From assembly GCA_963817895.1 (NCBI GenBank), contig CAWFQB010000001.1, positions 768,001-832,000 on the forward strand: a stretch of DNA of 64,000 bases, read 5' to 3'. The position numbers and the translations under genes were made by a program. This DNA is from an uncultured Chthonomonadaceae bacterium. Its GTDB lineage: Bacteria > Armatimonadota > Chthonomonadetes > Chthonomonadales > Chthonomonadaceae. The notes under the pieces are model-generated. The model had not been told where the DNA came from, ran no database searches, and worked only from the letters and a program-made list of their open reading frames with translations. Positions 28,523 to 42,377 of this stretch are shown one piece after another (position 1 is the first letter of the stretch; the number at the start of each line of letters is the position of its first letter).

Positions 28523-28803
28523 TTCAAACTTCCTTCCTCACTACTTCCTTTTTGTTTGCGTTTCCTGCCACTGACGCGCGGGAAACATGCTATTATTTAG
28601 AACGCCTGAGCCGAGGTTTTTGCAGCATTTTCTAATGGGATTTGCGCGTGTTTTTTACCTGCTCTTGTGGCGAGGCAAGGCTTGATAGCGAGTTGACGCG
28701 GCTTCATGCGGCTTTTGAAGGACGAATTATTCTGATTACACAACGCGAAGGGAACGCGCCCACAGCCGCCGCTTCCTCCCATTCCATTCTGTGGCAGCGG
28801 CGG

Positions 28804-30023
28804 ATGCTGGCATTTACATGCTGCGCGATGATGTTTTTGTATGCCGCGTATTTGGGCGCGATTGGCGTGCTGCTTCCCGCTGTGGGCAAAACGTTCGAGC
28901 TTGGTTCCGCCGCGCAGGGGCGTTTGTTTCCCGCCAATTTCGTCGGCTTCATCCTGATTGTGCTGATTGCCGCGCCCGCGTCGGATCGCTGGAACCGCAA
29001 AACGGTGCTGATGCTCGGACAGGCGATGTTTGTAACCGGCTTGATCGTGTTCAGCCGCGCGCCTTCGTTCGGTGTCGCGCTTGCCGCGTCCCTGCTCATC
29101 GGCGGGGGAAGCGGCGCGGTGGGCGTGATTTCCAGCGCGTTGGCCTCGGATTTGTATCCATTGCGGCGTGGCGCGATGCTGGCGGCGATTCAGGTGGCGT
29201 TCGGATTGGGAGCCGCGCTTGGACCGGGATTGGGAAGCGTCCTGCTGTCGCATCAAGTCTCGTGGCGCTTGCTGTACGCGGGCGCGGCGTTCGCCGGGTT
29301 CGCCCTGCTGCTGGCGTTACAGGCGCAGAAGGAAGAGGGGGAGACAAGGAGAAGTGGAGAAGAGGGAAAAGGGAAAAGGGAAAAGGGAATAGGAGAATCC
29401 CCCTCAACTATCAACTATCAACTATCACCTCCCTCAACTATGCTCTCGCTGCGAAGCAACGCCCGGTACAACTGCTGTGCGTGATGCAGATTTGCTATGC
29501 GGGGGCTGAGGTTGGCTATTTCTCGTGGATGCCTACGTATTTTCAGACACAACTGCCGGGAGGCGCAGCCCTTGCGGGCGCGGTTATCAGCGTGTTCTGG
29601 ATTGCTATGACAATCGGGCGCAGTTTGACCGGCAAGTTTATGGGGCAGGCAGGCTTTATGCGCTCGTGCGCTTATCTGGCGACTGCGGGAGCCGTTTGCG
29701 CCGGAGTGACGCTGATCTGGCATAATCCCACAGTGGTTTTAGCCTGTATAGTTTTAACAGGCCTGTGCTTTGCGGGCATTTTTATTCTGATGAGCGCGGA
29801 AGCGAGCGAGCGGTACGCGCATAGTCTGGGCGCGATTTTCGGCTGCATCGTGGCGTGTGGCGGATTGGGAACCTCGCTGATTCCCTGGGCGGTTGGCGCG
29901 GTTGCGTCCACGAAAGTTGGTTGGACAGGCGGGCTGATGCTGGTTCCCCTTGCGGCGTTGGGCGTCGCCGCCTGCGCAATCCTATTGGGGCGTGAAAAGC
30001 AGTACGAGATTAGCCGCGAATAA
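28804..30023 (+). CDS. MFS transporter, frameshifted within a repeat insertion in the central loop
   Basis: N-half in ORF 28642..29484 (SDRWNRK motif A, six TMs), C-half in ORF 28791..30023. The frame switch falls in the heptamer repeats at about 29331-29445. Confidence 0.8.
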
Positions 30024-30099: not shown

Positions 30100-30149
30100 G
30101 CCCCTCTCCTAGCGCGTTGCGCGGCAAGGAGAGGGGCTGGGGTGAGGTA
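30100..30149. repeat. Single arm of the cccctctcc/ggagagggg REP family
   Basis: cccctctcctagcgcgttgcgcggcaaggagaggggctggggtgaggta, nearly identical to the arm at 12285-12333. Confidence 0.85.
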
Positions 30150-30171
30150 TTTAGTTTTGAGGAGTAAGGAA

Positions 30172-30891
30172 TTGGGCAAGATTATGGGGCTGGATGTGGG
30201 GGCGAAGACGATTGGGGTCGCATTTTGCGAGGAGGGGACGCGGCTGGCGTTTCCGGGGAAAACTATCTGGCGGCAGGAGGGCAAAAAGCGCGACATGGCT
30301 GCTCTGCGCCAACTGGTTGCCGAAAATGACGTGAAGCGTATCGTGGTCGGAATTCCCCTGCTTTCCGACGGCTCGCGCGGCCCGCAGGCGGAAACCATCG
30401 AAGCGTTTATTGCCACGCTGCGCAACAGCGTCCGTATCCCCATTGTCACGCAGGACGAGCATTTGTCCACGCAGGAAGCTGAACAACTATTGTTCGCCGC
30501 AAACCGCCCCCGCGCCGAACACAAACGCACCCTCGATTCCGTCGCCGCCGCGCTGATTCTGCAATGGCATCTTGAGGAAGAAGAGGGGGAGAGAGGGAAG
30601 AGGGAAGAGGGAAGAGGGAAAAGAAAAGATACAAGATACAAGATACAAGATACAAGAAGAAGAGAACTCTTTCCTTTTCCCTCTTCCCTCTTCCCTGAGT
30701 GGGGCTGCCGATGTCTGAGCCGGAAACCACGTCGCGAAATTCGCTGCGGGCGCAGACGCTGCGGCAGCAGAAACGGATGCGCCGGATGCGCGGGCTGCTG
30801 GCGGGATTGCTGCTGGCGGGTCTGTGCGCGTGGGGCGGTTGGATGTGGGCGAGTTCCGCGCCTTCCAACAGCCATGCCGCCAAAACCGTAA
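30172..30891 (+). CDS. ruvX: YqgF/RuvX family nuclease (C-terminus extended by a repeat insertion)
   Basis: IMGLDVGAKTIGVA, IVVGIPL, QDEHLST, LDSVAAALILQ. Natural end probably near 30590-30698. Confidence 0.9.
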   Translation: MGKIMGLDVGAKTIGVAFCEEGTRLAFPGKTIWRQEGKKRDMAALRQLVAENDVKRIVVGIPLLSDGSRGPQAETIEAFIATLRNSVRIPIVTQDEHLSTQEAEQLLFAANRPRAEHKRTLDSVAAALILQWHLEEEEGERGKREEGRGKRKDTRYKIQDTRRRELFPFPSSLFPEWGCRCLSRKPRREIRCGRRRCGSRNGCAGCAGCWRDCCWRVCARGAVGCGRVPRLPTAMPPKP

Positions 30892-34063: not shown

Positions 34064-35878
34064 ATGGTAATGGCACGCAAGAGTCTTGGCGACTATATGC
34101 TCGAAAAGCAGTACCTTACCGAGACGCAACTTGAGGAGGCCCGCAAGGCGCAGCAGAGCACGCGCGGCGACCTTGCCAAAATCCTCGTCGAAATGGGCGT
34201 GGATGGCCGCAAGGTGTACGAAGCGAAAGCCCATGAAATGGGCGTCCCGTTTGTAGATTTGTCTAAATTCAAGCCCGAACCCGGCGCGATCAACATCGTG
34301 CCGAAGCACGTCGCCACGCGGCACAATGTGCTTCCCCTTCGCAAGCAGGAGCAAGTGTTGTGGGTCGCGATGACCGATCCCAACAACATTCAGGCCTCGG
34401 ATGACCTGCGCCTGGTTTCGCGCTGCACCATCAAGGCCGTCCTTGCCCCGCCCACCGACATTGAGGACGCCATTGGCCGTAATTACGGCAGCGATCTTGC
34501 GCCCGAAGCCGTTACCGGCGCGGCCACGACCTCACCCGGCATGAACCCTATGGGCAAAGGGGGCATGAATCCCAACAAAGCGGCCAGCAACGACATTATG
34601 GATACGGATGTTAAGTCCGCTATGGCCGAAGTCGTCGCCATTCGGGGAGCGCAGGGGGATGCGGCGAAGGAAGATGAAGCCGCCGCGCTGGAAGCCGAAG
34701 TGGAAGCCGCGCCTATTGTCCGTCTCGCCAACACCATTTTGCAGTCGGCCATCAAAGAGAAAGCGTCGGATATTCACATCGAACCGGACCGCCGCAACAT
34801 TCGCGTCCGTTTTCGTATTGACGGCGTACTGCACGAAGTCATGCAGATGCCCGGTTATATCAAAGCCCCGCTTGTCGCCCGCTACAAAATTTTGTCGGAA
34901 ATGAACATCGCGGAACGCCGCGTCCCGCAGGACGGACGCATCGGAACCCGCTTTGACAACAAAGAATACGACCTGCGCGTGTCGTGCCTGCCCAGCCTGC
35001 ATGGCGAAAAAATCGTTATGCGTATTCTGGACAAGAGCAGCGTTATGCTCGGCATGAACAAACTGGGTTTTACGCCCGAAATGCAGACGCAGATTGAGGA
35101 ACTGGCCGCGCAGCCGAACGGAATGTTGTTGTCCACCGGCCCAACCGGATCGGGCAAAACAACCACGCAATATTCGCTGCTGAACAAACTCAACGACATT
35201 GAAAAGAACATTCTCACGGTAGAAGACCCGTGCGAGTACCAGTTGAGCGGCATCACGCAGGTACAGGTGAACAAAAAAGCCGGCCTGACGTTCAGTTCCG
35301 CGTTGCGCTCGTTCTTGCGGCAAGACCCGGACATCATCATGGTCGGGGAGATGCGCGATCTGGAAACGGCGGAAATCGCTATTGAATCCGCGCTTACGGG
35401 CCACCTTGTGCTTTCCACGCTGCACACCAATGACGCGCCCTCGGCAACGATTCGTTTGATTGATATGGGCATCGAGCCGTTCCTTATCTCGGCCACCATC
35501 ATCGGCATCATGGCGCAGCGGCTTGGACGGCGCATCTGCTCCAACTGCAAAGAGTATTACGAGGTTCCTGCCAGTGACCTGCGCCGCTTCGGTTACAAAG
35601 TGACCGACCCGAACGAGATGGTGCAACTGGCGCGCGGCAAGGGCTGCGAAATGTGCCGCAACACCGGGTATAAGGGCCGCGTCGGGTTCTACGAACTGAT
35701 GACGATGAACGCGGAGATGGCGGAAATGGTGGTTCGCCGCGCCCCGCTGACGGACTTGAAGGAAGCCGCCAAAGCCAACGGCATGAAGGAACTGCGCGAA
35801 GACGGTCTGGTCAAAGTTTTGCAAGGCATGACCACGCCCGAAGAGGTTATGCGCGTCGTCTTCACCGCCGGTTTCTAG
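34064..35878 (+). CDS. pilB: Type IV pilus assembly ATPase PilB (GspE family)
   Basis: N-terminal MshEN/T2SSE_N region, ASDIHIEP, RFRIDG, PQDGR, Walker A GPTGSGKT, Asp box TVEDP, LRQDPDIIMVGEMRD, GHLVLSTLHTN, tetracysteine motif. Confidence 0.96.
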   Translation: MVMARKSLGDYMLEKQYLTETQLEEARKAQQSTRGDLAKILVEMGVDGRKVYEAKAHEMGVPFVDLSKFKPEPGAINIVPKHVATRHNVLPLRKQEQVLWVAMTDPNNIQASDDLRLVSRCTIKAVLAPPTDIEDAIGRNYGSDLAPEAVTGAATTSPGMNPMGKGGMNPNKAASNDIMDTDVKSAMAEVVAIRGAQGDAAKEDEAAALEAEVEAAPIVRLANTILQSAIKEKASDIHIEPDRRNIRVRFRIDGVLHEVMQMPGYIKAPLVARYKILSEMNIAERRVPQDGRIGTRFDNKEYDLRVSCLPSLHGEKIVMRILDKSSVMLGMNKLGFTPEMQTQIEELAAQPNGMLLSTGPTGSGKTTTQYSLLNKLNDIEKNILTVEDPCEYQLSGITQVQVNKKAGLTFSSALRSFLRQDPDIIMVGEMRDLETAEIAIESALTGHLVLSTLHTNDAPSATIRLIDMGIEPFLISATIIGIMAQRLGRRICSNCKEYYEVPASDLRRFGYKVTDPNEMVQLARGKGCEMCRNTGYKGRVGFYELMTMNAEMAEMVVRRAPLTDLKEAAKANGMKELREDGLVKVLQGMTTPEEVMRVVFTAGF

Positions 35879-35917
35879 CCCTCACCCCTAGCCCCTCTCC
35901 CAAGTTTGGGAGAGGGG
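35879..35917. repeat. Short cccctctcc/ggagagggg REP
   Basis: ccctcacccctagcccctctcccaagtttgggagagggg directly after the pilB stop. Confidence 0.8.
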
Positions 35918-35965: not shown

Positions 35966-37282
35966 ATGTCGGACGAGGACGCGAAAACCGAACAGCCGAC
36001 GCCTGACCCGTTGCCGGATATAGATGTCCGCTCTGCCATAGCCGAAGTGATTGCATTAGCAGGAGCGCAGGACGCGGCGACTGATTATGAAGACGAACAC
36101 CAAAAACAAGTTGAGGAAGCGCCGATAGTTCGACTTGCCAATACCATTTTACAGTCGGCTATTAAAGAAAAAGCGTCGGATATTCACATCGAACCGGATC
36201 GCCGCAACATTCGCGTCCGCTTCCGTATTGACGGCGTACTGCACGAAGCGATACAGATGCCGGGTTATATTACAGCCCCTCTCACGCGACGGTACAAAGT
36301 CTTAGCGAATGTAAACATCATAGAGTACCGTGTGCCACAGCAAGGCCAGATAGGTACGCGGTATGACGGCATTGAGTACACTCTACGGTTTAACACAGTC
36401 CCAACGCACTACGGCGAAAAGATTATAATTCGCCTTTCTGCCACATCCGGCGCGAAGTTGTACATAAATCAAGTAGGTTTTACGCCCGAAGTGCAGGCGG
36501 CGCTAGAGGATTTGCTGTTCTGGCGACCGGGCATGTTGTTGATTGCAGCAGGAAACGGGCAGGGCAAGACGACCACGCAGTATACGTTTCTGAACCGTCT
36601 GAACTCTGTGGATAAAAGCATTTTTGCGGTAGCCCCCGATTACGATTATACGCTGCCGGGAATTACGCAAGCCACGCTGAACCCCGGTATCGGCTACACG
36701 GCGGAAGCGGCATTAGCGTCTATCGCCAATCTGGACGCGCAAGTTGTCGCGCTGGATCGCTGCCGTTCGCGGGAAGCCACGCAGCTGGCGTTGGGCATGG
36801 CAGCCGCCAACACAATTGTTTTGCAAACCCTGACGGCTTCCAACGCTTTGTCGGCGTTGCGGTATCTGACCGAGAGCGCGGAACGGGGTTTGATTGCGGA
36901 AGGGTTAAGCGGTATTCTCGCCCAAACGTTGGTTCGCCGCCTTTGTTCCAACTGCAAAGTATTTTACGAGGTCACTGCTCAGGACTTGCGCCGTTTTGGA
37001 TACAAAGTGACTGATCCCAATGAAAGTGTGCAGATTGCGCGTGGCACAGGCTGCGAACAGTGCCTCAATACAGGCTACAAAGGCCGTCTCGGATTATTTG
37101 AACTGTTGACGATGAACGCGGAATTGGCGAATATGATTGTTCTGAGAGCTTCTGAGAAAGACTTGAAGGAAGCCGCCAGAGCCAACGGCATGAGGGAACT
37201 GCGCGAAGACGGGCTGGTCAAGGTTTTACAGGGAATAACGACACCCGAAGAGGTTGTACGCGCCGTTCCGATGCGGATGTAA
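35966..37282 (+). CDS. PilB paralogue lacking the N-terminal domain, with degenerate ATPase motifs (pseudo-ATPase)
   Basis: Near-identical to PilB over APIVRLANTILQSAIKEKASDIHIEPDRRNIRVRFRIDGVLHE and the C-terminal Zn region; Asp box, Walker B and His box replaced. Confidence 0.88.
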   Translation: MSDEDAKTEQPTPDPLPDIDVRSAIAEVIALAGAQDAATDYEDEHQKQVEEAPIVRLANTILQSAIKEKASDIHIEPDRRNIRVRFRIDGVLHEAIQMPGYITAPLTRRYKVLANVNIIEYRVPQQGQIGTRYDGIEYTLRFNTVPTHYGEKIIIRLSATSGAKLYINQVGFTPEVQAALEDLLFWRPGMLLIAAGNGQGKTTTQYTFLNRLNSVDKSIFAVAPDYDYTLPGITQATLNPGIGYTAEAALASIANLDAQVVALDRCRSREATQLALGMAAANTIVLQTLTASNALSALRYLTESAERGLIAEGLSGILAQTLVRRLCSNCKVFYEVTAQDLRRFGYKVTDPNESVQIARGTGCEQCLNTGYKGRLGLFELLTMNAELANMIVLRASEKDLKEAARANGMRELREDGLVKVLQGITTPEEVVRAVPMRM

Positions 37283-37348: not shown

Positions 37349-37518
37349 TAAGAGCCTATCCCGGTAGGCCGGGTACAAAGAACGTACCCGTCTGAGTGGC
37401 CTGCGGCCAAGCGTCCTTCGGACGCAAATGCAATCGCCTGTTGGGATAGGCTCTAAGCCTCCCGCGTCCGAAGGACGCCTGGCGGAACGCCATATAGACA
37501 GGGGTTTTCAACCTCTGG
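37349..37518. repeat. REP copy B overlapped by a small MITE-like unit
   Basis: Inverted relative of 1156-1287 (tggcctgcggccaagcgtccttcggacgca ... gcgtccgaaggacgc); plus IR gagcctatccc / gggataggctc, each flanked by taa. Confidence 0.75.
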
Positions 37519-37580
37519 CGCGGGCTGGGGCGAGTGTGATTACCGAAGGAGAGGACGAACTTGAAAAATTCTTCTAACTC

Positions 37581-38609
37581 GGGCCTTGTGCTAGTTAGCA
37601 CGTCATTGTGTGGCCTGTCCTTTGTTCAGTTTGTGCCTTCGTTACGTACAAGAGTTTATCATCACACAAACTCCGCGCGTAACGAAAGGCACTTCCATGA
37701 TAACGCATTTTGACGACTTCTGCTTGTGGGTCTACTATGTGATTGACAGTATCTGGCAAGAAATCGGCAGTCAGTTCACCCATCCCGGCCCCCAATCCGA
37801 GTGCAGTGATGCCGAATTGCTCACGCTCGCCCTTGTGGGCGAGTGCCGGGGGTGGGACAAAGAAACGGAGATGATGCAGGAATGGCGGATGTACCGCCAC
37901 TTATTCCCGCATTTGCCCGAGCGTTCGCGCTTCAATCGTCGCCGCCGTACCCTGTGTCAGGCGATGAACCTGATCCGTCAAGGTGTACTTGGCTTGTTGG
38001 ACTTAGCCCAAGATGGACAATGCTTGCTTGACAGCCTGCCGGTTCCCGTTGTCGGCTTTCATCTGGCTCCGCAGGCGGGCAGCGGCTGGAAAGAACACGG
38101 CGCGACCTTCGGCAAAGTCAGTTCCAAGAAGTGGACAATCTTCGGCTACAAACTGCACTTGTTGTTAGCTGTCAACGGAACTATTCTGGACTTTGAACTC
38201 GCCCCTGCCAACGAAACCGACCTGAGCGTGGGGCAGGAAATCCTGTCGGCCCACGCGAATTTGCTGGTCATGGGCGACAAAGGCTACATCAGTCAGGAAG
38301 CGAAGGAACAGTGTGCCCAACGCAATGTCCGTCTGCTAACCCTGCCGCGTTCCAACCAGAAACAACAGGTTAGTCGCGAAACCAAGTACCGCTTCAACCG
38401 TTTGCGGCAGATAATCGAGACGGTCAATGGGCAACTCACGCAACAGTTCAACGTCGAAACCAATCATGCGCATAGTTTTTGGGGCTTGTGTACCCGCTTG
38501 TACGCCAAGTTGACCGCCCATACCGTGTGCATCTATCTAAACCGCTTGCTCGGCAAGGCAGAGTTCTTGCAGATCAAGGCACTGGCCTTCCCTAACTAGC
38601 ACAAGGCCC
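37581..38609 (+). mobile_element. IS982-family insertion sequence
   Basis: 18-bp perfect IR gggccttgtgctagttag / ctaactagcacaaggccc around a single transposase; no target duplication seen. Confidence 0.88.
37697..38599 (+). CDS. IS982-family DDE transposase
   Basis: SDAELLT, FPHLPERSRFNRR, LLDSLPVPV, FGYKLHL, GDKGYIS, RQIIETVNGQL. Confidence 0.92.
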   Translation: MITHFDDFCLWVYYVIDSIWQEIGSQFTHPGPQSECSDAELLTLALVGECRGWDKETEMMQEWRMYRHLFPHLPERSRFNRRRRTLCQAMNLIRQGVLGLLDLAQDGQCLLDSLPVPVVGFHLAPQAGSGWKEHGATFGKVSSKKWTIFGYKLHLLLAVNGTILDFELAPANETDLSVGQEILSAHANLLVMGDKGYISQEAKEQCAQRNVRLLTLPRSNQKQQVSRETKYRFNRLRQIIETVNGQLTQQFNVETNHAHSFWGLCTRLYAKLTAHTVCIYLNRLLGKAEFLQIKALAFPN

Positions 38610-38623
38610 TAGTTGTTAGGCCA

Positions 38624-38893: not shown

Positions 38894-38964
38894 TCGCATC
38901 CGCATCGCAATCATTGGCTTTGCCCGAACAAGCGCGGGCAAAATGTAATCGCCGGAGAAAACAC

Positions 38965-40365
38965 TTGGCAAACAATCCCTACTCCAACCAGCCCGGAGCA
39001 CCCCCGCAGCCGGGACAGCCCCAACAGCCCGGTCAGCAGCCGGGAAGCGGATCTCAACAGGCCGGCGGCTTCGGAGCCGTACCCAACATGTACGGTCAAG
39101 CCCCACCCGTAAACGCCTATAATCCCGGCGCGGGACAGGTTCCTGCCGCGCCGGGTCAACCGGGTCAGCCCGGCCAGCCGGGTATGCCCGTGCCGCAGCC
39201 CATGCCGACCGCGCAAGTCGTGCAGGTGGCATCCGCGAAACCGCAGCCGCTCGACGACGCGCATATTGACGACCTGCTGAACACGATGTTTGAAAAGGGC
39301 GCGTCCGACCTGCACCTTGCGGTCGGTATTCCGCCTATCATCCGCATTGATGGCGCGCTTGTGCCGGTTCCCTATGAGAAGATGTCTCCGCAGCACTCGC
39401 AGCGCCTGATTTACGACATTCTCACGGACGAACAGATACAGCGGTTTGAAACCCATCTGGAACTGGACTTCTCCTATCAGCTTGCGCGCACCGCCCGCTT
39501 CCGCGTGAACGTGTTCCGCGATAAAGGCAACTGCGCCAGCGCGTTCCGCCAGATTCCGCAGAAAATTCCGACCCTGACGCAATTGAACCTGCCCGCCGTG
39601 CTGGAAGAACTGACCCGCCTGCCGCGCGGCCTTGTCCTCGTGACCGGCCCGACCGGTTCGGGCAAGTCCACCACGCTGGCCGCCATGATCAACCAGATCA
39701 ACAGCGAAGTCAGCAAGCACATCATCACGATTGAAGACCCGATTGAGTACCTGCACACGCACCGAACCAGCGTTATCAATCAGCGCGAAGTCGGGCAGGA
39801 CACGCTGGAATTCAAAAACGCCCTGCGCGCCGCCCTCCGCGAAGACCCGGACGTGATTCTCGTCGGTGAAATGCGCGACCTGGAAACCATGCAGATGGCC
39901 GTGTCCGCAGCCGAAACGGGCCACCTTGTGTTCGCCACGCTGCATACCAACTCCGCGGCCACCTCCGTCGAGCGCATCGTGGACTCGTTCCCCGGCGGGC
40001 AGCAGGAGCAGGTTCGCTTGCAGTTGTCCAACAACTTGCAGGCCATTCTCTGCCAGCAGTTGATTCCCCGCGCCAACCAGCCGGGCCGCGTCTGCGCCCT
40101 GGAAATCATGCGCGCTTCCCCGGCCATCCGCAACCTGATCCGCGAGGCCAAAGCGCACCAGATCACAGTCATGATTCAGACCAGCGCCAACCTGGGTATG
40201 CAGACGATGGATCAGTGCCTGCGCGACCTGTACGTGCGCGGAACCATCTCGTTTGAAGAGGCCATGAACCGCGCCATGAACCCGCCGGAACTGGAAAAGA
40301 TGATCAAAACCGTGACCGCGCCGACCACCGGGCCGGGTTCAAGCGGCGGCAATACGCGGTATTAA
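38965..40365 (+). CDS. pilT: Type IV pilus retraction ATPase PilT with P/Q/G-rich N-terminal extension
   Basis: GASDLHL, GPTGSGKSTT, TIEDPIEY, LREDPDVILVGEMRD, GHLVFATLHT, AIRNLIRE, GMQTMDQ; TTG start after ggaga. Confidence 0.95.
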   Translation: MANNPYSNQPGAPPQPGQPQQPGQQPGSGSQQAGGFGAVPNMYGQAPPVNAYNPGAGQVPAAPGQPGQPGQPGMPVPQPMPTAQVVQVASAKPQPLDDAHIDDLLNTMFEKGASDLHLAVGIPPIIRIDGALVPVPYEKMSPQHSQRLIYDILTDEQIQRFETHLELDFSYQLARTARFRVNVFRDKGNCASAFRQIPQKIPTLTQLNLPAVLEELTRLPRGLVLVTGPTGSGKSTTLAAMINQINSEVSKHIITIEDPIEYLHTHRTSVINQREVGQDTLEFKNALRAALREDPDVILVGEMRDLETMQMAVSAAETGHLVFATLHTNSAATSVERIVDSFPGGQQEQVRLQLSNNLQAILCQQLIPRANQPGRVCALEIMRASPAIRNLIREAKAHQITVMIQTSANLGMQTMDQCLRDLYVRGTISFEEAMNRAMNPPELEKMIKTVTAPTTGPGSSGGNTRY

Positions 40366-40499: not shown

Positions 40500-40976
40500 A
40501 TGCCGATCTTTCAATACACCGTACGGGATCAACCGGGCAAACGCGAACCGGGACATCAGAAGCGGAAGACATCGAAATATTGAAGATGCGCCTTCAGGAG
40601 CAGGGATTTGCCGTAGTAGAGGTCGGTGGGGTTGGCTATAAGCGCGACCGCAGCCGTATGGTTCGCGTTTCCAGCACTGAAGTGCTGGTGTTCTGGATAC
40701 AGTTTTCCATTATGATTGACAAGCAGGTGTCGCTTGTCCACGCCTTAGACATTGCCGCCGAACGCGCCGAATCCCTGCGCTTTGCTTCAGTGTTGAAATG
40801 TATTGCGAGGTCAGGTTTGCGGCGGAACGCCCCTGCATCAAGCCATGTCGCAGTACCCCAACGTTTTTGATGTGGCTTCCGTCGGCATTATTCATGCGGG
40901 CGAAACCGCCAACGCCCTGCCGGACGCCGTACATCGCCTGATACAATTTATGGAGCGTGACCGCAGGCGTGGTTGA
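40500..40976 (+). pseudogene. Truncated pilC paralogue covering only the first cytoplasmic domain (two frameshifts as sequenced)
   Basis: MPIFQYTVRDQ / RTGTSEAEDIEILKMRLQEQGF..QFSIMIDKQVSLVHALD / GGTPLHQAMSQYPNVF..IIHAGETANALPDAVHRLIQFMERDRRRG* aligns to the PilC N-terminus and stops before TM1. It may be intact if the indels are read errors. Confidence 0.75.
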
Positions 40977-41016: not shown

Positions 41017-41059
41017 CCCCTCTCCCATGCTTTTTGGGAGAGGGGCCGGGGGTGAGGGC
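41017..41059. repeat. Short cccctctcc/ggagagggg REP (inverted relative to 35879)
   Basis: cccctctcccatgctttttgggagaggggccgggggtgagggc. Confidence 0.8.
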
Positions 41060-41120: not shown

Positions 41121-42377
41121 ATGCCCGTTTTTCAATATACTGTCCGTGACCAGACCGGAGCCGTTCGCACCGGCACGTCGGAAGCGGAAAATCAGGAGAT
41201 TCTGAAACGCCGCTTGCAGGAGCAGGGCTTTCAGGTCAACGATGTTTCGCAATCCAAAGGCAAGCAGAAGAAGTCTGCCGGAGCCGGGTTTGGCCGCGTC
41301 AAGCTGGGCGACCTTTCGATTTTCTGCCGCCAGTTTTCCACCATGATTGACGCGGGCGTGTCGCTTGTCCGCGCGCTCGACGTGCTGGCGCGAACAGACG
41401 CAGAACCCCAAGCTGAAGCGCATCCTCAAAGAGATTCAGGTTGAGGTCGAATCGGGCGGCACGCTTTCCAAAGCGATGCAGAAGTACCCGAAGGTTTTCA
41501 ACAACCTGTTTATCGGGCTTGTGCGCGCGGGGGAAGTCGGTGGTGTACTCGAAGAATCTTTGCAGCGCCTGTCCCACTTCCTTGAAAAGGATATGGAACT
41601 GCGCCGCAAGGTGAAGTCGGCTATGACCTATCCCGTCATCGTCCTTGTCGTTGCGCTCGCCATCGTCCTCGGCCTTTGTACCTTCATCGTTCCCAAGTTC
41701 GTGGAGCTGTTCCACGACCTCGGCGTGAAGGAACTGCCCGCCATGACGCAGTTCCTCGTGGACTTCAGCGACTTCCTGAAGAACAAGTGGTACATCGGGA
41801 TCATCATCTGCGTGGTGGCATGGTTCGCCGTCAAATACTTTGGAACGACCAAAGTAGGACGGCGCGTGATTGACCGCGTGAAGCTGAAAATGCCCGTCTT
41901 CGGCAAACTGGGCCATAAAATCTGTCTGGCGCGTTTTTCTCGAACGCTTTCCACGCTTCTGGTTTCGGGCGTACCGATTTTGCAGGCGATGGAAACGGTT
42001 GCAGGCACACTTGGCAACGAAATCATTGCCGAAGCGGTTATGAACGCCCGCGCCCGTATCCGTGAGGGCGATAAAATCAACGAGCCGCTGGAAAAAAGCA
42101 AGATGTTCCCGCCGATGGTCGTTCACATGATCAGCATCGGCGAAGAATCGGGCGCTCTGGACCAGATGCTTTCCAAAATCGCCGAATTCTATGAGGGCGA
42201 AGTGGAAGCGCAGCTCGCGTCGCTTACCGCCGCCATCGAACCCATCATGATCGTGCTGCTCGGTATCTGCGTCGGCTTTATCGTTATCGCCATGTTCATG
42301 CCTCTGGTCAGGTCATTCAGAACCTGACGGGCGGCGGCGACGATGAAGCGAAAAAAGCGGGCGGCGACGAAAAGTAA
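41121..42377 (+). CDS. pilC: Type IV pilus platform protein PilC (GspF family); apparent frameshifts at about 41390 and 42310
   Basis: RBS ggaggag; FCRQFSTMIDAGVSL, RAGEVGG, VKSAMTYP, ARFSRTLSTLLVSGVPI, IGEESGAL, IEPIMIV. Corrected end VIQNLTGGGDDEAKKAGGDEK*. Confidence 0.93.

Follow-up and report, generated by a model that had tools for sequence, protein, structure and literature searches.

A putative pseudo-ATPase derived from PilB and encoded behind pilB in Chthonomonadaceae

We suggest that pilB*, the gene found directly behind pilB in an uncultured bacterium of the family Chthonomonadaceae, phylum Armatimonadota, encodes a real, selected and apparently undescribed pseudo-ATPase variant of the pilus motor. 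It was noticed in a window of 64,000 nucleotides (the whole stretch of DNA analysed) by a sequence-only reading, which proposed an intact PilB paralogue with lost chemistry. Judged by alignment and codon comparison, pilB* has the sequence properties expected of a pseudo-ATPase: the predicted fold is kept, the catalytic residues are lost and purifying selection acts on the gene. The selected pseudo-enzyme, which that reading preferred to random decay, is well supported by syntenic orthologues and by dN/dS far below 1. We see an even chance that PilB* joins PilB oligomers and damps pilus extension, as the pattern of lost and kept residues would suggest.

The pilB* gene, its neighbours and its altered motifs

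The open 438-codon gene reported behind pilB was found as described: its ATG lies at 35966, 87 bases past the pilB stop, and its own stop ends at 37282. The features of the locus are as follows.

34064-35878 (+), pilB, the canonical extension ATPase of 604 aa, with MshEN and T2SSE and all motifs intact; presumed partner and conversion donor of pilB*
35892-35917 (+), 11-bp hairpin separating pilB and pilB*, a dispersed REP-like repeat that also has a terminator-like score
35947-35968 (+), purine-rich leader and ATG of pilB*
35966-37282 (+), pilB*, PilB paralogue of 438 intact codons, without N1D/MshEN and with degenerate catalytic motifs
36020-36280 (+), linker helix and N2D first half of pilB* (residues 19-105), tracking the host's own PilB
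36386-36433 (+), arginine fingers R141 and R156 of pilB*, corresponding by alignment to Geobacter PilB R271 and R286, both kept
36545-36571 (+), altered Walker A AAGNGQGKT, with Gly-Lys-Thr kept and the Pro-Thr pair lost
36626-36649 (+), degenerate Asp box AVAPDYDY, with the first Glu changed to Ala and the Mg-binding second Glu to Asp
36725-36769 (+), ANLDAQVVALDRCRS in place of the RQDPD motif and Walker B, with Gly changed to Asp264 and the catalytic Glu to Arg265
36806-36844 (+), erased His box, the equivalents of Geobacter T411, H413 and H420 being Ala, Thr and Thr
36914-37267 (+), R324 (Geobacter R455), zinc tetracysteine C327/C330/C363/C366 and C-terminal helices, tracking host PilB
37576-38614 (+), insertion sequence lying behind pilB* and ahead of pilT, bounded by terminal inverted repeats of 23 bp and encoding a DDE transposase (PF13612); context, outside the proposed system
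38914-40365 (+), pilT, the retraction ATPase, given as the longest ORF; the true start may lie further in
40500-40976 (+), pilC*, a diverged and frameshifted copy of the first cytoplasmic domain of PilC; possible partner module
41121-42327 (+), pilC, the platform gene, frameshifted once in this assembly (near 41395)

The gene order, which we take to be yqgF-mltG-yqeG-aroE-pilB-pilB*-IS-pilT-pilC*-pilC-pilD-pilins, was named by reading the sequences apart from pilB, pilT and the transposase. The ATG start of pilB* is supported by the purine-rich leader, which is common to the congener G002. The hairpin behind pilB was considered as a system-specific element and rejected, being a REP-like palindrome with 47 copies genome-wide and a second local copy at 41017-41045, between pilC* and pilC. 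Promoter-like sites were at chance level (5 found, 4.0 expected), and long inverted repeats occur additionally at 37351-37502 of the window, near the insertion sequence. Apparent single-base frameshifts were seen in pilC (41121-42327) and probably in the neighbours at 28642-30023 and 30142-30891, which suggests indel errors of this assembly (81% complete); the one near 41395 is probably a sequencing indel, since pilC is intact in both congeners.

Three more PilB/GspE genes were detected elsewhere in the genome, all more distant. Those on contigs C2 and C14 have canonical motifs. An MshEN-less paralogue at G000:C4:793608-794774 (-) shows altered motifs (GAAASGKT, VAECRS, LLHVGS) and keeps the Lys, the glutamates and both His. 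The genome-wide scan for tandem paralogues produced 194 candidate ORF pairs; tandem duplication is common in this genome, so tandem position alone is no evidence for pilB*.

The Pfam search detected T2SSE only in pilB* (PF00437, residues 48-432, E 2e-77) and no PF05157, compared with MshEN plus T2SSE in the neighbouring PilB, in agreement with the reported absence of MshEN. The N1D/MshEN domain of active motors is missing, and the room upstream is the 87 bases to the pilB stop. The five motif swaps read from the letters were confirmed as written by the alignment of the two proteins: Walker A changes from TGPTGSGKT to AAGNGQGKT (residues 194-202), the Asp box from TVEDPCEY to AVAPDYDY (221-228), the RQDPD/Walker B region from LRQDPDIIMVGEMRD to ANLDAQVVALDRCRS (254-268), the His box from GHLVLSTLHTND to NTIVLQTLTASN (282-293) and PQDGR to PQQGQ. 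Arg265 stands where active motors have the catalytic Glu after Walker B, and the Asp-box glutamates and His-box histidines are represented by Ala223, Asp227, Thr283 and Thr290.

The claim of lost chemistry holds for the catalytic Glu, the Asp box and the His box, all replaced, but not for GKT, R141, R156 and R324, which are kept; the survival of the P-loop lysine and the arginine fingers had been overlooked. In the Walker A motif (GxxxxGKT) the first Gly, the Pro and the Thr are changed. The zinc tetracysteine C327/C330/C363/C366 and the clade-specific inter-chain Arg R324 (R455) are present. We infer that PilB* is unable to hydrolyse ATP at a useful rate; nucleotide binding may persist, given the retention of GKT, R141, R156 and R324 and the Gly-to-Asp change in Walker B.

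PilB* and PilB are 93% identical over the first half of N2D and 51% over its second half; identity is 39% for the ATPase core and reaches 73% for the zinc/C-terminal region. N2D and the C-terminus had been described as almost unchanged, which is correct for the first half of N2D (pS 0.44, pN 0.04 against pilB) and overstated for the C-terminus. The predicted model of PilB* is of moderate quality (mean pLDDT 68, pTM 0.52) and best matches PilF/PilB/GspE, with a Foldseek E of 3e-32 but a TM of only 0.39, and PilB, PilF and GspE are its best matches by sequence too; by structure PilB* is a member of the PilB/GspE clade of PilT/VirB11-like ATPases. It scores far under the NCBIfam cut-off of TIGR02538 (333 bits vs 676) and under that of the TfpB model NF053534 (276 bits vs 850).

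Distribution, selection and mosaic history

We searched 42 genomes of the family, in 37 of which the pilB-pilT stretch is readable, the other five being unscorable. The syntenic orthologues called for by the sequence-only reading were detected: pilB* lies between pilB and pilT in 9 of the 37 scorable Chthonomonadaceae genomes, from six genera (G000, G001 and G002 of one genus, G003, G049 with a partial copy at a contig end, G013, G023, G015 and G054). In 28 scorable genomes, close kin of a carrier included, pilT follows pilB directly, so pilB* is dispensable. The species tree (four flanking proteins; G003 not included) requires at least five changes in pilB* presence, all within one 27-genome subclade. 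An assembly artefact was considered and rejected, since orthologues occur in independent assemblies at 84, 78, 66 and 63% core identity.

Outside the family, a tandem copy was detected in 0 of 3 loci from the same order, and no adjacent pair was seen among the matches listed for 16 order-level genomes (read by eye) or among those listed for 45 genomes from 42 other families. The profile search of 1.84 billion representatives gave 22 degenerate-motif proteins among the best 150 matches, picked by eye, one of them the G003 copy, and the ESM Atlas returned only generic T2SSE clusters. Several proteins of the degenerate clade described below are annotated 'PilB' by pipelines, and motor counts in Armatimonadota are therefore inflated.

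A dN/dS near 1, which would have spoken against the sequence-only reading, was not observed, the values being far below 1. Against the congener G002, pilB* has dN/dS 0.19 overall (95% bootstrap 0.14-0.25) and 0.16 in the degenerate core (95% bootstrap 0.09-0.25; Nei-Gojobori in both cases), and the ratio is well below 1 in every region; the pilB pair has 0.09 overall and 0.02 in the core in the same comparison. At dS 0.94 about 48 stop codons would be expected under neutrality and 0 were observed, and 8 of 8 full-length genomic copies are free of stops and frameshifts. The low dN/dS and the absence of stops indicate that pilB* is maintained and not decaying. Its core evolves more than 10 times faster than that of PilB, with only 25-37% identity between genera.

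Recurrent tandem duplicates in slow, functionless decay under relaxed selection would fit a locus at which pilC, pilT and the 5' end of pilB tend to be duplicated in part, with pilC* broken in two of three congeners. The five or more changes in presence on the species tree, and the tendency of a simple model to join long branches falsely, could be read in the same way. This explanation is already disfavoured and we hold it to be hardly credible, given the dN/dS in every region, the eight open full-length copies and the retention of structural glycines and cysteines where catalytic residues are lost.

pilB* is a mosaic gene: the core points to one origin, and both ends group with the PilB of each host. 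It derives from the lineage of the adjacent pilB. In the core tree the nine genomic copies form one clade (96/85, with a long-branch warning), and separate origins of the core are rejected by an AU test run with 2000 replicates under the mixture model (p 0.004). With denser core sampling, including database proteins, 27 degenerate proteins, 19 of them from the database, form one clade, sister to the PilB of the family (SH-aLRT 99, quick search, in a tree built without P0165, P0221 and P0123, the last a duplicate). LG+G4 also favoured one origin, by +64 log units, but this was discarded as unreliable, since 2 of 40 independent-origin simulations reached that value. In the mixture-model control 0 of 17 simulations reached the observed +9.0, a modest margin with few replicates. 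Several origins are possible, because LG+G4 was fooled in this way, the mixture replicates number only 17 and convergent loss lies beyond the simulation. Within the phylum degeneration happened more than once, since two HTH_17-fused degenerate cores from other families, detected among 20 short-framed matches fetched, fall outside the 27-member clade.

In 6 of 7 copies the linker and N2D first half are nearest to the PilB of the same genome. A single clade of copies is rejected by AU tests both for the linker with N2Da (p 7e-7) and for the C-terminal region (p 7e-6), and 371 bases are identical between pilB* and the own pilB of G013. Together these results indicate recurrent gene conversion of the ends. 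The conserved ends had been taken as a sign of constraint; their likeness is at least partly due to gene conversion, and selection adds to it. Codons 61-90 differ from pilB by 7 synonymous and 0 amino-acid changes, a pattern best read as selection acting in addition to conversion to keep the ends PilB-like.

Residues and extra domains of the degenerate clade

Residue roles were mapped through the alignment from Geobacter PilB (PMC5424180), with PilT (PMC6858323) in addition; these papers, like others marked 'in part' below, were available as portions of their text. In solved structures a T411-H420 contact marks an interface as closed and catalytic and a T411-R455 contact marks it as open (PMC5424180, PMC6858323, in part), and the atypical Walker B Gly occupies the place of the usual Mg-binding acid (PMC5424180, in part). 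Substitutions of the Glu and of the His abolish function in PilT (PMC6858323, in part). Those of the Glu do so in BfpD, the double-glutamate mutant of which has measurable residual activity (PMC9765406, in part).

In the degenerate clade the T411 equivalent is kept in 0 of 23 proteins, H420 in 1/27, T327 in 2/27, the Asp of QDGR in 0/27 and the Arg of RQDPD in 6/27. The catalytic Glu is kept in 6/27 and in 0/12 among close copies; no member has both this Glu and the gamma-phosphate His (H420) (0/27), and the general-base position varies freely (Arg 9, Glu 6, Asp 3, others). The Arg and Asp of RIDG in N2D, the four zinc cysteines and the last Walker A Gly are kept in 27/27, the R455 equivalent in 26/27, the first arginine finger in 22/27 and the pore-loop Glu in 18/27. 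GK[TS] is intact in 15/27, the Walker A Lys is lost in 12/27, and the Gly428 position of Walker B is Asp or Glu in 16/27. Positions invariant in the PilB of the family and in 90% of other matches are kept at 89% in the N2D first half, 92% in the C-terminus and 44% in the core (seven lineages). The loss is aimed at hydrolysis and closed-interface coupling and is not random, since T411, H420 and the Glu are mostly gone and N2D, the cysteines and R455 mostly kept.

Canonical proteins served as controls. All 115 non-orthologous homologue matches and all 28 PilBs of the family have Lys365, Glu387, Glu391, Glu429 and His454. Other lineages supplied 80 canonical loci with 87 PilB/GspE cores, none of which has lost at least 3 of 12 key residues. 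This locus set came from single-protein locus searches; another such search gave one canonical locus.

A slow but real ATPase, rewired so that the new Walker B Asp takes the role of the Asp box and PilB* works as an alternative weak motor, is in our estimate very unlikely. The GKT, both arginine fingers and an acidic residue at the Mg position are kept in pilB*, and Gly428 is Asp or Glu in 16 of the 27 proteins, as such a motor would need; the six members with the catalytic Glu, the 15 with intact GK[TS] and the residual activity of the BfpD mutant (PMC9765406, in part) also count against a dead motor. However, the general base is Arg in pilB* and varies over the clade, the Walker A Lys is lost in 12 members, the Glu and His never occur together, and the Glu/His substitutions in PilT (PMC6858323, in part) and Glu substitutions in BfpD (PMC9765406, in part) abolish function.

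Some members of the clade have extra domains: four carry an N-terminal HTH_17 and one keeps MshEN, which counts against a motor brake and points to other roles in some lineages. P0194 joins two T2SSF domains to a degenerate core. HTH_17-fused or T2SSF-fused degenerate cores were recorded at L153:2716-5093 and L158:5062-6525 and in P0158, P0168, P0201, P0209, P0221 and P0194; such proteins are possibly regulators made of pilus motor parts. In four other families of the phylum, PilB/GspE cores that lack MshEN but are catalytically intact carry an N-terminal zf-HC2 zinc finger (PF13490; L155:433-1773, L159:5012-6343, L160:234-1568, L164:2847-4169). The PilB/GspE proteins of about 1000 aa with two cores (P0122, P0124-P0127, P0129-P0131, P0134-P0137, P0142, P0152; 14 listed) were considered as natural active/dead fusions and rejected, since the Lys, the glutamates and the His are present in both cores.

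We also detected pilC* just upstream of pilC at four loci: 40500-40976 (+) of the window, L032:12455-12937, L031:11979-12368 and L172:4436-4924 (-). It is intact in G001 (160 aa) and frameshifted in G000 and G002, and the G024 copy has a short hydrophobic tail with one membrane helix predicted by reading. A PilB*-PilC* module is a lead suggested by these sequences. Other partial copies are a 145-aa PilT N-terminal copy ahead of pilT (G017, L037:7268-7705) and a 139-aa MshEN-only copy of the PilB N-terminus ahead of aroE (G023, L035:3331-3750).

These domain fusions bear on the possibility that PilB* is a signalling or sensing protein outside the motor ring, for example a permanent mimic of PilB in its nucleotide-free, signalling state, or a nucleotide sensor tied to DNA binding or to a soluble PilC-like partner. 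An ATPase-dead PilB of Myxococcus still signals exopolysaccharide production (PMC5544727, in part). The HTH_17 of four clade members, two more HTH_17-fused degenerate cores in other families away from any pilB, the soluble two-domain PilC-like gene just upstream of the L153 core, the T2SSF domains of P0194 and the kept P-loop and arginine fingers of pilB* would all be in line with it. We consider it unlikely for the tandem copies, which carry no added domain, and whose ends follow the host PilB lineage by lineage with 30 codons of synonymous-only change, fitting the binding of PilB or of a PilB partner better.

Possible role of PilB* and relation to known systems

We propose that PilB* would dock on PilB through those of its parts that conversion and selection keep matched, namely the linker, N2D and R324. 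In PilB, N2D packs against the CTD of the next chain (PMC5424180, in part), and P. aeruginosa PilB without N1D interacts with itself when the linker is present and not when it is removed (PMC13436744, in part); the start of PilB* lies just before the linker helix. Once in the ring, PilB* would lack the closed-interface Thr-His contact, and the catalytic step would not be passed to the next subunit. Also altered is the RQDPD surface, on which the next subunit is received in BfpD (PMC9765406, in part); with the step-passing contact missing, PilB* could therefore cap an open oligomer or jam a closed one, slowing or stalling pilus extension. Without N1D it would neither dock on PilM nor respond to c-di-GMP, so those contacts would be diluted too.

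A plasmid-borne point mutant of P. aeruginosa PilB, changed next to Walker B, is dominant negative, abolishes twitching in the wild type and gives phage resistance (PMC13170266, in part), which argues that subunit poisoning works and that phage resistance is one possible benefit. Full incorporation of PilB* into the ring may fail, since the RQDPD surface is altered (Arg kept in 6/27) and the core is 25-37% identical between genera, and part of the end similarity may be a by-product, because gene conversion keeps neighbours alike regardless of binding.

The docking parts could also serve a positive, non-catalytic subunit or assembly helper, as an ordered member of a PilB heterohexamer or as a stabiliser of PilB before docking: the linker, N2D, the zinc site and the open-interface Arg are kept, the pore-loop Glu is present in 18/27, and two dead subunits could fill the two open interfaces of the PilB ring, which are two-fold related (PMC5424180, in part). 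In the same structures, however, open and closed states pass round the ring, and fixed dead subunits would block this (PMC5424180, in part). In the tree, carriers are not obviously set apart from non-carriers by their PilB cores, and pilB* is dispensed with in 28 of 37 genomes; we regard a positive role as improbable.

Another use of a host-matched N2D and linker would be as a decoy, soaking up phage-encoded PilB inhibitors while the real motor stays free. The patchy presence and fast-evolving core resemble those of conflict genes. We know of no phage-encoded PilB inhibitor for this phylum, and a selected core (dN/dS 0.16) and a zinc domain would be needless for a decoy, which makes this role quite improbable in our assessment.

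Non-catalytic subunits of ring ATPases, such as F1 alpha, exemplify a paralogue that may bind nucleotide without hydrolysis in a hexameric ring, and they are universal and essential. PilB*, as read here, would likewise be such a paralogue, and it differs in its patchiness and fast evolution. The N2D-CTD-zinc architecture is common to PilB* and the extension ATPases PilB/GspE (PF00437; Geobacter PilB 5TSG/5TSH, Thermus PilF), but PilB* has no N1D/MshEN, and its catalytic Glu, Asp box, His box and RQDPD are replaced. The second motors TfpB of Acinetobacter baylyi (PMC8213720, in part) and PilU are likewise a second motor-family ATPase on the same pilus machine; TfpB extends pili alone and forms an old separate clade unlinked to pilB (PMC8213720, in part), whereas PilB* is tandem, converted and catalytically degenerate.

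PilB is regarded as a homohexamer, and the inhibitors described in the available part of a review (PMC11656802) are small unrelated proteins. CpiA, Aqs1/Tip and Zip (PMC11656802, PMC8213720, PMC13436744, in part) bind PilB and lower extension, the outcome predicted for PilB*; they are small and unrelated to PilB, whereas PilB* would be a motor-derived self-mimic. The closest evolutionary parallel found lies next to caspase-1: the CARD-only proteins CARD16/17 are truncated tandem copies that inhibit their parent enzyme by homotypic binding, and they were repeatedly converted, which keeps them matched, and repeatedly lost (PMC11383037, in part), a pattern alike in PilB*. They are eukaryotic, unrelated in sequence and devoid of any catalytic domain (PMC11383037, in part), whereas in PilB* the fold stays and single residues are lost. 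This is an analogy only, in which the divergent core and converted ends of PilB* would make a clean bacterial counterpart. Our literature search (main texts only, subscription papers being mostly outside its scope) found neither a catalytically degenerate PilB paralogue nor such a pilus regulator.

Somewhat short of an even chance, in our estimate, is the wider proposal that Armatimonadota repeatedly made regulators out of the pilus motor, in the form of a dead PilB twin whose docking ends are matched by conversion and which caps or jams the ring, some lineages adding a soluble PilC mimic or a DNA-binding domain. If true, type IV filament machines would have in it their first brake made from a self-derived pseudo-motor, and hexamer coordination could be tested with a natural subunit-poisoning reagent. 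Across the 27 proteins, the pattern of residue loss marks the Thr-His contact of the closed interface as what goes first. With the pilB* proteins as ready probes one could ask if a single inactive subunit is enough to halt the ring and through which contacts the catalytic step is handed on; a dead paralogue under natural selection would bring a further layer to the control of pili.
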